Positions 1 through 22,518 of a stretch of 27,598 bases of DNA are shown here, in pieces (position 1 is the stretch's first letter; each line of letters opens with the position of its first letter). The DNA comes from Candidatus Wukongarchaeum yapensis. GTDB taxonomy: Archaea > Asgardarchaeota > Wukongarchaeia > Wukongarchaeales > Wukongarchaeaceae. Location: positions 1 through 27,598 of the forward strand of contig JAEOSI010000002.1 of the NCBI GenBank assembly GCA_016840425.1. The letters are read 5' to 3'. The position numbers and the translations under genes are program-made. The notes beneath the pieces were generated by a model. It searched no databases, was not told the origin of the DNA, and saw only the letters and a list, made by a program, of their open reading frames with translations.

Positions 1-282
1 GCCTAAAAATCCAGCCAGTACAGAACAACCCGTACCAACTAAATAGGCAATACCAGTTTTCGTATTAATCGCAACCGAGATAACTGCAAATAGTATAATT
101 ATAAAAAAAACTAAGGTTTGATATTCTCGTTTGAGAAATGCTAGTGCACCTTTTCTTACGGCATTACTTATCTCTTGCATTTCTTTAGATCCTGCATCAT
201 GTTCCATGATCATTTTCGCAAGATACAGTGCAAATACTAGTGCTAATATACCCGCAATTACATCAAGCGCTATCATTTTCAT
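1..282 (-). CDS. hppA: Membrane-bound H+/Na+-translocating pyrophosphatase, N-terminal 94 aa (runs off window start)
   Basis: Hand translation MKMIALDVIAGILALVFALYLAKMIMEHDAGSKEMQEISNAVRKGALAFLKREYQTL...AYLVGTGCSVLAGFLG matches the M-PPase N-terminal pattern GxxxMxEIxxAIxxGAxAFLxREY and the following TM helices. Not in the ORF track because it has no stop in the window. Confidence 0.93.
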   Translation of the reverse strand, partial: MKMIALDVIAGILALVFALYLAKMIMEHDAGSKEMQEISNAVRKGALAFLKREYQTLVFFIIILFAVISVAINTKTGIAYLVGTGCSVLAGFLG

Positions 283-328
283 TCCATGTCCGTAACAAAA
301 TATTTTAGGATATAATACCGTTTTATTA

Positions 329-501
329 TCATACTTTTAATGCATAACTTCTCGGAATGGTAATATCCTTTTGGCTATCTCGCTATTCTCAGGATCAATG
401 ACTACAATAGCCATTCCAACCCTCAGATAACGTGGAAGTTTTGCATATATCATAATTTTGCCTACATTTTAAAATTTTTATGACAGTTTTAAATGTTTCA
501 T
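329..501 (-). pseudogene. spt4: Degraded Spt4 / RpoE'' (transcription elongation factor) relic
   Basis: Pieces in shifting frames read MK..C(H)K...ICKTSTLSEGWNGY / VVIDPENSEIAKR / ITIPRSYALKV*, matching archaeal Spt4 CxxC..LSxxWxGxVxIxDPExSEIAK..PGxYALKV. At least three frameshifts and an eroded first CxxC. Confidence 0.85.
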
Positions 502-731
502 TTATTTTTCTCCTTTGATTTAGCTTCTTTTCTTCTTCTTCAAGCCATCATAATTTATCTAAATTCGTTTGTCTCATTGTTAACCGATTTTACCCGTTTT
601 TGATGCACTTTTTAAGTTAACTGCAATAATACACGCTTTAACCTTGTCACCTTCTTTTAACGTTCTATTCGTGTCTCTTCCATTGAGAACGTTTTTTTCT
701 ATCAAGTGAGACATCCAATGGCCCTATACGG
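502..731 (-). pseudogene. rpoE1: Degraded 3' half of RNA polymerase subunit E' (Rpo7)
   Basis: Frames read RIGPLD-[deletion]-SLDRK / NVLNGRDTNRTLKEGDKVKACIIAVNLKSASKTGKIG / TMRQTNLDKL*WLEEEEKK, matching the RpoE1 S1-domain and C-terminal motifs GPxDG, LKxGDxVRARIxAV and KIGLTMRQPxLGKxEW. It has frameshifts and an internal TGA, and it abuts spt4 as in the conserved rpoE1-spt4 operon. Confidence 0.88.
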
Positions 732-1201
732 GTGAACTACCCTGCCCTTATGGACGGGGTTTCCGTACATGTCAAATGAGACGGATCCCATTTGACCACG
801 TTGCCCGAGTTCACGCGGGGATTACAGTTAGGAGCGTTTTCCAACGATCCATACTGATACGTTTTAAGGATGTTTATAGCCCCGATCACGTCGGGGTGGT
901 TTTTATAACCGCATTTGTTACACCTAAAAATTCCTCTTTTTTTGCGGTTTTTCCTCTTTCTATCACCGCAGACAGGACATGTTCTGCTGGTGTATTTTTC
1001 GCTGACCTTCTTTAACGCGATGCCTACTCTTTTGAGTTTGTACTCTAAGAGCGAGGTCAGCGTAATGTAGCTCCATGAGTGGAGCTTTTGGTTGGTTTTC
1101 CTCCCTAGGTTTTTTCCTTTCCCGTTGTTATTTTTTCTTATGTTTTTTTGTTTTTTTAGACGGTTGTTTTTGGAAAAAGAGATAGTGGGCGGAGAGTTCA
1201 C
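732..1201 (-). mobile_element. Internally deleted IS200/IS605-family (tnpB) element, 470 bp, with both ends
   Basis: On the minus strand it starts GTGAACTCTCCGCCC (half of a left-end hairpin) and ends GAAACCCCGTCCATAAGGGCAGGGTAGTTCAC (right-end hairpin). Only the 3' part of tnpB lies between them. End assignment is by similarity to typical IS605 ends; boundaries are uncertain by 1-2 nt. Confidence 0.75.
737..1201 (-). pseudogene. tnpB: TnpB C-terminal fragment (Zn ribbon plus RuvC-III)
   Basis: Contains KLHSWSY..L..LLEYK, EKYTSRTCPVCG, FRCNKCGYKNHPDVIGAINI and the ETPSIRAG* tail. It is only 154 aa: REC/WED, RuvC-I and the RuvC-II acidic residue are missing, and the GTG start comes from the element's left end. 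Confidence 0.9.
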
Positions 1202-1752
1202 GGAGTGGCGAGTTTTTCGTATTCTTTTTTTAATATTCCGTATGTGAGTTCGTTATGCCATTTATTGTGTTTAAATAATGTTTCCCTCATTATTGCTTCT
1301 AGTTTAAACCCGCACTTTTCTAGGACTTTCTTGGAACCGATATTTTCTTCAAATAGGCGAGCATAAATTCTATGAAGTTTTAATTTTTCAAAACCGAGTT
1401 TTAGGATTAGTTTAACGGCTTCTGCCATTAACCCTTTTCCCCAATATTTCTTACCAAGCCAGTATCCCACTTCTGCATTTTTATTTTTCCAGTCTATGTT
1501 ACCTAAACTTACCATGCCGATGACTTCATCGGTATTTTTTAAAACGATTCCAAAATCGTAACCTTTTTTCTTTTTGAGTCTATAGTGCGCTCTTCTTATG
1601 AATTTTATCGCTTCATCTCTCGGGTATGGATGGGGAATATTCAACGTCCATCTAGTAACTTCTTCATCTTTCACATTCTCGTAAATATCTTGAGCGTCTG
1701 AAATTTTGAGTTTCCTTATCTTTATCCTTCCTTCATCCAGTTCTAGTGCCAT
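1198..1752 (-). CDS. RimJ/RimL-family GNAT N-acetyltransferase
   Basis: Motifs AEVGYWLGKKYWGKGLMAEAV and NIGSKKVLEKCGFKLE. The longest ORF extends to 1803; ATG at 1752 fits the usual family start. The TGA stop is supplied by the IS left end. Confidence 0.9.
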   Translation of the reverse strand: MALELDEGRIKIRKLKISDAQDIYENVKDEEVTRWTLNIPHPYPRDEAIKFIRRAHYRLKKKKGYDFGIVLKNTDEVIGMVSLGNIDWKNKNAEVGYWLGKKYWGKGLMAEAVKLILKLGFEKLKLHRIYARLFEENIGSKKVLEKCGFKLEAIMRETLFKHNKWHNELTYGILKKEYEKLATP

Positions 1753-1824
1753 AGTAAATTTTGAGTTAAAAGTGTTTATCATTTTTTTGTTTTTCAACAC
1801 CAAGGACGTGTACTGAGAGTTTAA

Positions 1825-1864
1825 GTGAACTAACCTACTTTATGGACGGAGCTTCCGTACATGT
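1825..1864 (-). mobile_element. Orphan second copy of the tnpB element right end
   Basis: GTGAACTAACCTACTTTATGGACGGAGCTTCCGTACATGT aligns to 732-772 at 35/41 positions by hand count, including the bases coding the TnpB tail TCTE(A/T)PSI. Confidence 0.85.
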
Positions 1865-2018
1865 TGATCTTTGTATTATGGTATTCAAGGCTTGGAAAAT
1901 GATTGGAAAACCAGAGAGGAGCAAGCTTAACATGAATGGATGAAAAGAGTACGTTTTGGGATCTGGCGTGGGTATCTGGCGGTTTTAGAAATCATATTGA
2001 CCTTTTTTCTCTATAATT

Positions 2019-2865: not shown

Positions 2866-4686
2866 TTAGAGATATTGTGTAAATTCTCCGAGTGCTAGTC
2901 GTTCTAAGGTTTCTTTTTTGGGCTTGCCTTCTACCCATCCTCGTTTTTCCCAGAATTCTTTAATCATTTTGTCTGCATGGGCAGCCGTATGTCCTTTAGC
3001 CGGTCCTTCTGGAATGGGTGTTTCTATGAGTCTTTTCGGTAGTTCGTCTTTTATATATTTTCCTTCTCTTACGCTGAACATTCGTTCCATGTTGTAGAGT
3101 CGTTCGCCTGTTTCCATTAGTTCGTCGGGGGTTATGTTCCATCCAGTAAAGGGCGCTAAGGCGTCTGTTATGTCTGTATGGTCAAGGCTAAAGCCGTTAA
3201 ATTTACAGCAGACTACGCTATCTATTACAATGAATAGGTTTTGCTGGTATATGTTTAGGTCAACTTTTTCACCGTTTTCTTTTAAGGGGTCTATCGATTT
3301 AGGTATTCCTAGAAGTGCCCATGTTACGGGATAAGATCTTAGGTGTCCTTCTCCTCTGTTACTGGTAGCGTATGCTACGGCAAAGCCTTTCATAGCTCTG
3401 GGGTCGTATGCTGCAAGACCCATACCTCTTGTGGTTATGGCTGCTTCAGGGTCTCCGTATTTTTCTGCTAAGGCTAAGGTTCCTTTAGCTAAATCGTCTC
3501 CAAATCCGTCTCTGTGGGCAGTTCGCCATATCAGTTCTATGGCAGCATCAGCGTTGCCCCAAGTTAGTTCTAAACCGCCTGTATCTTCTGTGGTTATTTT
3601 TCCTTTTTCAAAGAGTTCCATGGCGGTTCCCAAGACATTTCCATAGCTTATGGTATCCATACCCATGTCGTTTAAGAGGTAGTTTATTTTCAAAAGGGCA
3701 GGCAGGTCTCCGATACCACAGTTTGCTCCATTAGCCCATATGGTTTCGTATTCAGGGCTCTCATGTTCTGGAATGTCGTAGTTTTCCGTTTTTGCTCTAA
3801 CCAGTCGTCCACATTTAATTATACAGCCCCAACATCCAACTGGTTTGATCAAATATTTTTCAGCTAAGGTTTCTCCACTTATTTCATCTGCTTTTTCAAA
3901 AACTGCAGCGCTGAAGTTTCTAGTAGGCCATGCTCCAATATTGTTAACCATATTGACAAGAACCGCTGTGCCGTACGTGGTAAGGGCTTCTGTAACGCCG
4001 TGGTTTTTTACCTTTTCATGTTTCTCTTTTGCAACCTTAGAAAAAGCTTCTTTATCAACAGCTTCAGGATGTTTTGTTCCTTTGACGAATACGGCCTTTA
4101 ACTTTTTAGATCCTAAGACGGCGGCTAGACCCGTTCTTCCAGCGGCCCTCCATTTGTCATTCATTATGGCTGCTACGTTAGCCATGTTTTCGCCTGCCGG
4201 CCCTATGCCTAGAACGCTTCCACCTTTCTCCGCGCTCATTTCTTTTCTAATTTTGTTGTCTGTGTGGACAAGTCCTTTGCCCCACAAGTGTGATGCATCA
4301 TGAAGTTTTGGCTTCCCTTCTACTATGCTTAAGTATTGAGGTTTTGCGCCCATTCCTTCCATGACAATTCCATCATAGCCGGAAAATCTAAGCCATGGTC
4401 CAAAGTTACCGCCTGAGTTAGAGTCTCCTAAAATGCCGCTTTGAGGACTTTTACCTATTACGTGATATCTTCCACTTTCAGGGAATTGTGTCCCTGTTAT
4501 GGGGCCAGTTAAGATGTATATCTTGTTTTTTGGTCCTAAGGGGTCTATTCCTTTGGGGATTTCTTTGAAAGCTAAGTAGGCTCCTAGGCCTCTTCCTCCT
4601 AACCATTTCCTAACTTCTTCGTCTTTTATAACGTGGTCTTTAAAGCTTCCCTTAGATAGATCTACTCTTAAAAGTTTTAATTCCAA
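2866..4686 (-). CDS. aor: Tungsten-containing aldehyde:ferredoxin oxidoreductase
   Basis: 606 aa with KSPQSG...SNSGG, RAAGRTGLAAVLGSKKLKA, the CWGCIIKC Fe-S motif, PEYET, DMGMDTIS and DSVVCC. TTG start behind a GAGG SD. Confidence 0.96.
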   Translation of the reverse strand: MELKLLRVDLSKGSFKDHVIKDEEVRKWLGGRGLGAYLAFKEIPKGIDPLGPKNKIYILTGPITGTQFPESGRYHVIGKSPQSGILGDSNSGGNFGPWLRFSGYDGIVMEGMGAKPQYLSIVEGKPKLHDASHLWGKGLVHTDNKIRKEMSAEKGGSVLGIGPAGENMANVAAIMNDKWRAAGRTGLAAVLGSKKLKAVFVKGTKHPEAVDKEAFSKVAKEKHEKVKNHGVTEALTTYGTAVLVNMVNNIGAWPTRNFSAAVFEKADEISGETLAEKYLIKPVGCWGCIIKCGRLVRAKTENYDIPEHESPEYETIWANGANCGIGDLPALLKINYLLNDMGMDTISYGNVLGTAMELFEKGKITTEDTGGLELTWGNADAAIELIWRTAHRDGFGDDLAKGTLALAEKYGDPEAAITTRGMGLAAYDPRAMKGFAVAYATSNRGEGHLRSYPVTWALLGIPKSIDPLKENGEKVDLNIYQQNLFIVIDSVVCCKFNGFSLDHTDITDALAPFTGWNITPDELMETGERLYNMERMFSVREGKYIKDELPKRLIETPIPEGPAKGHTAAHADKMIKEFWEKRGWVEGKPKKETLERLALGEFTQYL

Positions 4687-21965: not shown

Positions 21966-22385
21966 TTATATTGGTGGGACGGAGTGTCGGGCGCCGCAGG
22001 CTTCGCATTGTAGGAAGGTGAGTCTTCCTTCTTTTTCTAGTTTGGTGTCTGGTTTTTCGCATTCTCTGCATTTTACGTATGTTTCTACGTATTTTTCAAG
22101 GACGCTTTCCAAGATTTTTTTGCTAAAAACGCCTGCAAAAATTACGCGTCCTCCTCCTTCTGTTCCTGCTGTTGCAAGTTCTCGGTTCATATACCTGATA
22201 ACGTGTTTTCCTGCCCTGTTTAATCTTGAAAGTATTTCGCTCCAATTTTGAACTATTGTTCTTCTTCCTTCGATAAATATTTCTAGTTGGGGCATTTCAA
22301 ATCTTTTTTTCTCAAAAACAACTTCTGGTAACTGTTTTCTGGCGCGTTCAAGTAACGTTTCATAATCATGAATATCTATGGGCAC
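21966..22385 (-). CDS. eif2b: Translation initiation factor aIF-2 beta
   Basis: DYETLLERA, RFEMP, TIVQNW, RELATAG, YVKCRECEKPDT and CEACGA. GTG start after GGTGA. Confidence 0.97.
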   Translation of the reverse strand: MPIDIHDYETLLERARKQLPEVVFEKKRFEMPQLEIFIEGRRTIVQNWSEILSRLNRAGKHVIRYMNRELATAGTEGGGRVIFAGVFSKKILESVLEKYVETYVKCRECEKPDTKLEKEGRLTFLQCEACGARHSVPPI

Positions 22386-22481: not shown

Positions 22482-22518
22482 GTGAACTATCCCGTCCTTA
22501 TGGAGGGGAGATAGTTAC
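22482..22518. repeat. Solo 37-bp hairpin related to the tnpB element ends (PATE/REP-like)
   Basis: GTGAACTATCCCGTCCTTATGGAGGGGAGATAGTTAC: 23 of the first 27 bases match 732-758, with stems AACTATC/GATAGTT and TCC/GGA. Confidence 0.7.

Follow-up and report, generated by a model that had tools for sequence, protein, structure and literature searches.

A 5'-Truncated TnpB Element Abutting a Decayed rpoE'-spt4 Copy in an Uncultured Archaeon: Most Probably an Inert Insertion Scar

Introduction

According to Meers et al. 2023 (10.1101/2023.03.14.532601), insertion sequences (IS) of the IS200/IS605 group insert 3' of a transposon/target-adjacent motif (TAM), and the guide of their omegaRNA is the DNA that comes after the TAM. 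The ISDra2 TnpB and its omegaRNA serve as the characterised model of the same insertion and guide scheme (Karvelis et al. 2021, PMC8612924). The present work concerns the remnant of one such element on the minus strand of a 27,598-nt contig from Candidatus Wukongarchaeum yapensis; this whole stretch, referred to as the window, is contig C61 of the archaeal assembly G000 (2.16 Mb in 277 contigs, 92% complete), and a genome of the same genus (G001, hereafter the congener) was used for comparison. Just past its right end the remnant carries sequence from an RNA-polymerase gene, in the position that a guide would occupy, and the first-pass annotation of the window had therefore proposed a guide-only cassette aimed at rpoE1 or at a foreign allele of it. 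At a probability of about 0.87, we conclude instead that the remnant is a dead, immobile, 5'-truncated TnpB-only IS200/IS605 (IS1341-type) copy, in other words an inert insertion scar.

With the TnpB-only members of IS200/IS605 (the IS1341 type, for which ISDra2 is the model), the remnant shares a TNB zinc-ribbon C-terminus, a scaffold overlapping both the 3' end of tnpB and the right end, an abrupt end of homology, a guide position filled by flank, insertion 3' of TTTAT without duplication (from an empty site), and a Y1 TnpA encoded elsewhere in the genome; it differs from them in being an incomplete element, with only a third of tnpB remaining and no left end. The stand-alone omegaRNA elements known as palindrome-associated transposable elements (PATEs; Meers et al. 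2023) likewise combine an intact omegaRNA-type scaffold with no usable nuclease gene, but they keep both ends and are mobile, whereas the remnant is without its left end. PATE-like siblings with both ends do occur in G000, on contigs C144, C97, C246, and C115, and the remnant is not among them.

A further point of reference is given by the TnpB-like nuclease-dead repressors (TldRs), presented by Wiegand et al. (10.1101/2023.11.30.569447) as nuclease-dead, TnpB-derived, RNA-guided repressors. What they have in common with the proposal for the present locus is that a guide of TnpB type would be directed at a gene of the host. TldRs are reportedly TnpB-like proteins of full length in which RuvC has been inactivated, and in different species they are conserved beside both the guide RNA and the genes that it targets; the remnant, by contrast, retains only the C-terminal third of TnpB (136 residues), is absent from the congener's locus, and has no matching target.

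Delimitation of the TnpB Remnant

The features that make up the remnant are as follows.

732..1148, minus strand: 5'-truncated TnpB-only IS200/IS605 (IS1341-type) remnant, the last 417 nt of the element
732..889, minus strand: right end and omegaRNA-type scaffold, terminal hairpin included
712..731, minus strand: guide-position flank, the 20 nt just past the right end; six codons (RIGPLD), the first of the surviving rpoE' relic
737..1201, minus strand: open frame of 154 amino acids with a Cas12f1-like TNB zinc-ribbon domain (PF07282, 1.7e-20)

A search of the archaeon's own genome with window bases 700-1201 found nine related copies, and all family copies there end at query position 470, that is, at window position 732. 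Homology to 15 sibling copies breaks off exactly at this base. When the ends were aligned (nine long and two short copies), each read ...GTAGTTCAC and then passed into unrelated flank, with the same pattern in the congener, so that one exact right end is common to nine full scaffolds in G000 and at least seven in G001 with a different flank each time. The right end that the first-pass annotation had placed at 732 is thereby confirmed, family homology stopping there in all copies of both genomes.

Towards its 5' side the remnant is far less complete. With a full element of the congener plus its flanks as query (el19, from G001:C4), window bases 1148 down to 732 align to query positions 1064-1480 at 89.7% nucleotide identity, and the encoded protein corresponds to residues 289-424 of the 424-residue family TnpB at 87.5% identity. 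Residues 1-288 are missing, which bears out the earlier claim that the N-terminus of the nuclease has been lost, and the left end that a complete IS200/IS605 member possesses found no match anywhere in the contig. Within the 154-residue frame, residues from about 19 to 154 are the TnpB C-terminus, comprising the alternative RuvC-II glutamate, the zinc ribbon, and the RuvC-III aspartate. The 18 or so residues before these are read from DNA outside the IS, and at its GTG start the frame overlaps by 4 nt the stop-codon end of an upstream gene for a GNAT acetyltransferase.

The omegaRNA-Type Scaffold

The scaffold was assessed with a covariance model (CM R1, model length 158) built from 15 copies with the window copy left out. 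Bases 732-889 match the model over its full length (1-158) at 185.9 bits, the second-best score among the 16 copies; the three intact copies of the congener, at 179-181 bits, fall below it. In an RNAalifold prediction from nine copies, the window copy has the same predicted stems as the intact ones; these include a long-range pairing of an internal GTGAAC with the terminal GTTCAC and a hairpin of which the stem is kept and the loop is variable. A 229-nt stretch folds with a z-score of -2.7 relative to shuffles. Covariation was not significant, the copies being so alike that the test gave no more than shuffles did (95.6% of cells paired, equalled by shuffles; only two pairs with double changes), and the secondary structure is accordingly presented here as a prediction. 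On the strength of the model score, the scaffold of the remnant is undamaged, in agreement with the first-pass remark that the region for it had been kept, and the disrupted stems that would have spoken against a guide function were not seen.

Rfam returned no meaningful match, either across the whole window at gathering thresholds or in 600-1300 at E<=10. The best Rfam match in 600-1300, HEARO, was rejected, lying on the wrong strand and scoring 15 bits against a cut-off of 83.

The Insertion Sequence Family and Its Target-Adjacent Motif

The remnant belongs to a new family of an uncultured archaeon, one for which Rfam has no model. The congener contains at least seven further copies, three of which encode an intact 424-residue TnpB (L019:583-1857, L020:1506-2849, and L021:1506-2780). 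The family's mode of insertion can be read from an empty site, because contig C173 of G000 is the un-inserted ortholog of the insertion on G001:C4: the element begins immediately past ...TTAT, and beyond its other end the sequence continues as it does past TTAT on C173, without any target duplication. The left-end flank is TTTAT in 15 of the 16 copies that retain a left end and ATTAT in the other one. The TAM of the family is TTTAT, and this motif together with the lack of duplication gives the IS200/IS605 pattern, in which insertion occurs 3' of the TAM and the guide is the DNA that had followed it.

A candidate mobiliser of the family ends is the Y1 (HUH) TnpA at C70:7637-7990 (PF01797, 1.4e-40), located at a contig end and followed by another tnpB. 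Mobility is also recorded in deletion derivatives at four loci of G000 (C144:5546-6017, C97:7224-7582, C246:2649-3012, and C115:3045-3474; loci L003, L006, L009, and L005, respectively), each consisting of a left end of about 110 nt joined to the last 360 nt or so, with the scaffold kept and both ends present. Those on C97 and C246 have a second internal deletion of about 105 nt in common, and the G001 copies on C7, C119, and C31 of that assembly give a split match similar to the derivatives. These common internal deletions and split matches imply that the derivatives were mobilised after the deletions had arisen.

The family TnpB matches TnpB and Cas12f structures. All five full-length copies, C177 of G000 and the three intact ones of G001 among them, have glycine at the canonical RuvC-II glutamate position (VVVGDL), a glutamate being found six residues ahead of the first CxxC (SEKYTSRTCPVCG), and the RuvC-I motif is D-L-G. 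Yoon et al. 2023 (PMC10711439) described 'Ealt' TnpBs, Fanzor-like TnpBs with an alternative RuvC-II glutamate in the pattern ExxxxxxCxxC...CxxC...D. The present family fits this pattern; in RuvC-I it differs from pro-Fanzors, which have DPG. The likeness concerns the TnpB family and not the function of the stump.

The remnant itself matters little. What the analysis yields as a by-product is a newly delimited archaeal IS1341-type family, now defined at left and right end, with a TAM (TTTAT) that an empty site confirms and a scaffold model of 158 nt; the family also has deletion derivatives that were mobile and a RuvC of the alternative-glutamate kind. A second by-product is the decayed second copy of the rpoE'-spt4 operon described below, which is common to two congeneric genomes.

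The Guide-Position Flank and the rpoE'-spt4 Relic

Beyond the right end lie two decayed genes.

461..731, minus strand: relic of rpoE' (Rpo7), its decayed 3' half with S1 domain and C-terminal tail; disrupted by at least two frameshifts and an in-frame stop, with about 32 nt lost internally
283..460, minus strand: decayed relic of spt4 (rpoE''), read in three frames and recognised by PDB matches, downstream of the rpoE' relic

The 20 nt of the guide position (712-731, minus strand) are CCGTATAGGGCCATTGGATG, and bases 2-19 of them encode RIGPLD. The whole relic from 461 to 731 is read in three frames as RIGPLD, a short garbled part, SHLIEKNVLNGRDTNRTLKEGDKVKACIIAVNLKSASKTGKIG, and LTMRQTNLDKL(stop)WLEEEEKK. 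Stitched together with X at each break, it matches seven archaeal RpoE'/Rpo7 sequences of the PDB at residues of approximately 100-186, the best being 1go3_E (3.3e-10) and 4qiw_E (5.3e-10), and the assignment of RIGPLD to an RNA-polymerase gene is thus upheld. The alignment to the PDB sequences indicates that about seven or more residues are missing right after RIGPLD, a loss estimated at about 32 nt and accompanied by a frameshift. The first-pass impression, by eye, of better preservation in the first 20 nt than in the relic beyond them was not borne out, for they amount to six codons ahead of this break, and the 43-codon stretch at 583-711 is equally Rpo7-like.

The spt4 relic is frameshifted, and its five best PDB matches are all Spt4/RpoE'' (E 0.0016-0.0047). 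It follows the rpoE' relic in the native operon order. Pfam searches with the 44-residue open reading frame (ORF) of the rpoE' relic and the 38-residue piece of spt4 gave neither an S1 nor an Spt4 match, the identity of both being set by the PDB sequence searches.

A functional rpoE' of 222 amino acids with SHS2 and S1 domains is present on contig C31 of G000 (L017:1027-1695). The N-terminal SHS2 domain (PF03876) is found only in this intact gene, the frame of the relic being broken, and no link between relic and host gene was detected by blastn or tblastn (E<=0.001). With Rpo7 of other families in the phylum, in contrast, the relic does give matches, of 50% identity at most, and a recent duplication of the host rpoE' was therefore rejected. 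Being too divergent from the host gene for either search, the relic probably represents either a paralog of great age or a xenolog.

The Orthologous Locus in the Congener

Two further genes of the window frame the comparison with the congener.

1198..1803, minus strand: intact GNAT acetyltransferase gene (PF13302, 9.9e-39), directly upstream of the TnpB remnant and on the same strand
1-282, minus strand: start of the H+-pyrophosphatase gene hppA (PF03030)

The orthologous locus of G001 retains hppA, the spt4 relic, the tail of rpoE', and the GNAT gene. Between the two genomes, hppA is 94.7% identical, the spt4 relic 87.1% with indels, and the rpoE' part at 461-592 89.4% with indels, the rpoE'-spt4 relic thus drifting like non-coding DNA. 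Because the relic is common to both genomes, the pseudogene predates their split. The GNAT gene is kept at 82% identity, and a T5 run immediately past its stop codon is conserved as well; this run is likely an archaeal terminator, which would make read-through from the GNAT gene into the remnant unlikely.

The remnant, on the other hand, has no counterpart there. Homology to G001 ends at window position 592 and resumes at 1174, in the 3' end of the GNAT gene, with 593-1173 wholly absent; where the window has the IS remnant and the S1 portion of the relic, G001 has 188 nt of unrelated DNA. It follows that the putative cassette is not conserved even within the genus.

As a side observation on this junction, a 42-nt inverted copy of window bases 2-43 (inside hppA; 95% identity) is located at L025 (G001:C97) 3608-3649, exactly where homology to the rpoE' relic stops, a sign of local rearrangement there.

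Guide Target and Cognate Nuclease

The target of the putative guide was sought from the host outwards. Within G000, the 20-mer at up to four mismatches matches only itself, and its first 16 nt (up to three mismatches) or first 12 nt (up to one) gave scattered matches, none of them in an rpoE' gene. The homologous codons of the intact rpoE' read ...TTTAT|AAGAATTGGGTGTACGGACG, beginning AAGAATTGGG. The TAM that the first-pass annotation had asked for is hence present at the homologous site of the host gene; the guide itself, however, matches there at only 10 of 20 positions, the mismatches including the TAM-proximal positions 1, 2, 4, and 7.

Further afield, an exact scan of genome_contigs, in which 185,579 species are represented by a single genome each, yielded one match to the 20-mer, in a Sphingobium, where about one would be expected by chance on our estimate. 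There were no exact matches in the viral contigs of IMG/VR or in the JGI metagenome contigs, with or without a TTAT prefix. Among 40 relatives, a scan at up to three mismatches produced one match (G002), inside an unrelated ORF and on the other strand. Both this and the Sphingobium match were rejected as chance occurrences, a reversed control pattern having matched twice among the relatives.

The nuclease side gave a similar answer. G000 has 31 matches to the TNB domain, about a dozen of them in near-full-length open frames, and for those TnpBs that the family TnpB detects, full-length identity to it does not exceed 28%. Within the family itself, G000 has a single full-length copy, that on C177, the ortholog of an intact copy on G001:C92, and its tnpB is broken into frames of 81 and 186 amino acids. 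Nested within it on the opposite strand is a mini-element of about 199 bp (C177:4059-4257; L007, approximately 1634-1832) with a GTAGTTCAC-type end of its own. The search for a full-length cognate tnpB that had been recommended thus turned up a single broken gene, and no intact cognate TnpB is present in the G000 assembly.

Origin of the Remnant and Competing Explanations

The history and the lack of function that we infer for the remnant, as an inert scar of an IS1341-type insertion, run as follows. The element would have inserted directly 3' of TTTAT, the usual mode of its family. In a spare copy of the rpoE'-spt4 operon, this motif would have occurred fortuitously among the codons of a conserved Rpo7 motif, as the Phe-Ile pair (TTT ATC) that precedes R-I-G-P-L-D of the S1 domain; the copy would already have been, or was soon to be, a pseudogene. 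The flank begins C|CGT ATA GGG, and this fits an ancestral TTT ATC CGT... (F-I-R-I-G). A later deletion would then have taken the left end together with TnpB codons 1-288 and the relic's upstream half, so that the stump came to abut the GNAT gene on its 3' side. Because the left end is lost, the remnant cannot excise or transpose, and without excision the empty donor joint, the substrate for which the guide was made, never arises. Given that the guide is by construction the DNA after the TAM, an rpoE-derived guide is an automatic by-product of the landing site, and each of the nine G000 scaffolds indeed carries a guide from its own flank. Where host-gene sequence fills the guide position beside a TnpB right end, it is therefore to be read as an insertion-site footprint and not as evidence of targeting.

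Several points weigh against so simple a history. The scaffold is fully intact and outscores the intact copies; the 154-residue frame is still open, and its ratio of non-synonymous to synonymous substitution rates (dN/dS) against intact copies, 0.18-0.24, is about that among the intact copies themselves (0.13-0.22). The remnant looks young, and its state of decay, taken alone, says little against its use. An intact cognate tnpB could also lie in unassembled repeats, and six other full-length TnpB elements of G000 share a terminal hairpin of the ...G[GC]GGTTCAC type, most of them ending in GTAGTTCAC, this hairpin alone being what they have in common with the family. As to the open frame and the clean scaffold, they reflect youth and not selection, since the dN/dS matches the level among intact copies.

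The remaining probability is split among residual homing, use of the RNA in trans, and an exapted small protein. Residual homing, to which we allow a slim chance, would have the omegaRNA and a TnpB from an unassembled sibling cut un-inserted alleles of the pseudogene in other cells or chromosome copies. This is the established, selfish role of TnpB and its omegaRNA (Meers et al., 10.1101/2023.03.14.532601; Karvelis et al., PMC8612924), and the genome contains a Y1 TnpA as well as numerous siblings; yet without a left end there is no excision and so no donor joint in this lineage, an un-inserted allele was not found in G000 or in the scans of public genomes, viral contigs, and metagenomes, and the site is deleted in the congener.

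Use in trans is slimmer still as a prospect. Here the stump would be transcribed and its omegaRNA loaded by a TnpB from elsewhere, so as to cut or repress an rpoE' of the host or of foreign origin. Gene-less IS200/IS605 derivatives with omegaRNAs that need TnpB in trans are known (Meers et al., 10.1101/2023.03.14.532601), the scaffold is intact, the congener has three intact cognate TnpBs, and the intact rpoE' bears a TTTAT TAM at the homologous site. Set against this are the lack of an intact cognate TnpB in the assembly, the mismatch of half the guide with the host gene, and the failure to find matching DNA with a TAM in the 40 relatives, the 185,579 species genomes, IMG/VR, or the JGI metagenomes; the cassette is moreover absent at the congener's orthologous locus, and a cell could not survive a cut in an essential gene of which it has a single copy. 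A special case, which we hardly credit, is that the stump omegaRNA and the TnpB of an unassembled sibling cut incoming DNA carrying the parental, non-host rpoE' allele (TTTAT followed by the 20-mer); if true, a dead transposon would by accident have given rise to a module for defence or exclusion with a single spacer.

In sum, what stands of the first-pass reading is the TnpB 3' end with its right end, the intact scaffold, and rpoE' sequence in guide position, whereas the guide-only cassette acting in trans does not: two of the four outcomes listed there as telling against it were found, namely no intact cognate TnpB and no matching target. The evidence supports the fallback offered alongside it, an old insertion scar.

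Scarcely believable, finally, is the exaptation of the 154-residue frame (zinc ribbon plus part of RuvC) as a host protein co-expressed with GNAT, which could appeal to the open frame, its 4-nt overlap with the GNAT stop, and the low dN/dS against intact TnpBs, but the last equals the level of active copies and so would record history before the truncation, the fragment is absent beside the orthologous GNAT gene of the congener, the conserved T5 run after that gene probably terminates transcription, sibling fragments elsewhere have broken frames, and the protein is without RuvC-I, WED, and REC.

Neighbouring Features

The stretch from 283 to 2200 is a graveyard of gene and mobile-element fragments, and one of these is a second piece of the same IS family.

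1825..1865, minus strand: orphan right-end fragment of about 41 nt, 85% identical to 732-772 and ending GTTAGTTCAC

Some 20 nt separate this fragment from the start codon of the GNAT gene downstream of it, and homology to the congener stops earlier, at window position 1793. On the plus strand, the 15-nt GGGCGGAGAGTTCAC at 1186-1200 resembles the tip of a right end facing the GNAT stop codon, G001 keeping a ...GTTTAC version of it; it was considered as another right end and is too short for a call. A short right-end-like hairpin ending GATAGTTCAC, with only 27 matching nt, is found at 22482-22510 on the minus strand, about 100 nt upstream of an aIF-2-beta-like gene (21966-22385, minus strand). 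A 38-nt A/T-rich repeat at 1141-1178 recurs at C253:10022-10059 with 97% identity. At 2043-2162, on the plus strand, there is a 40-residue C-terminal relic of a DDE transposase of the IS4/IS5 type (PF01609, 8.7e-07), a related piece of which is present in G001:C39.

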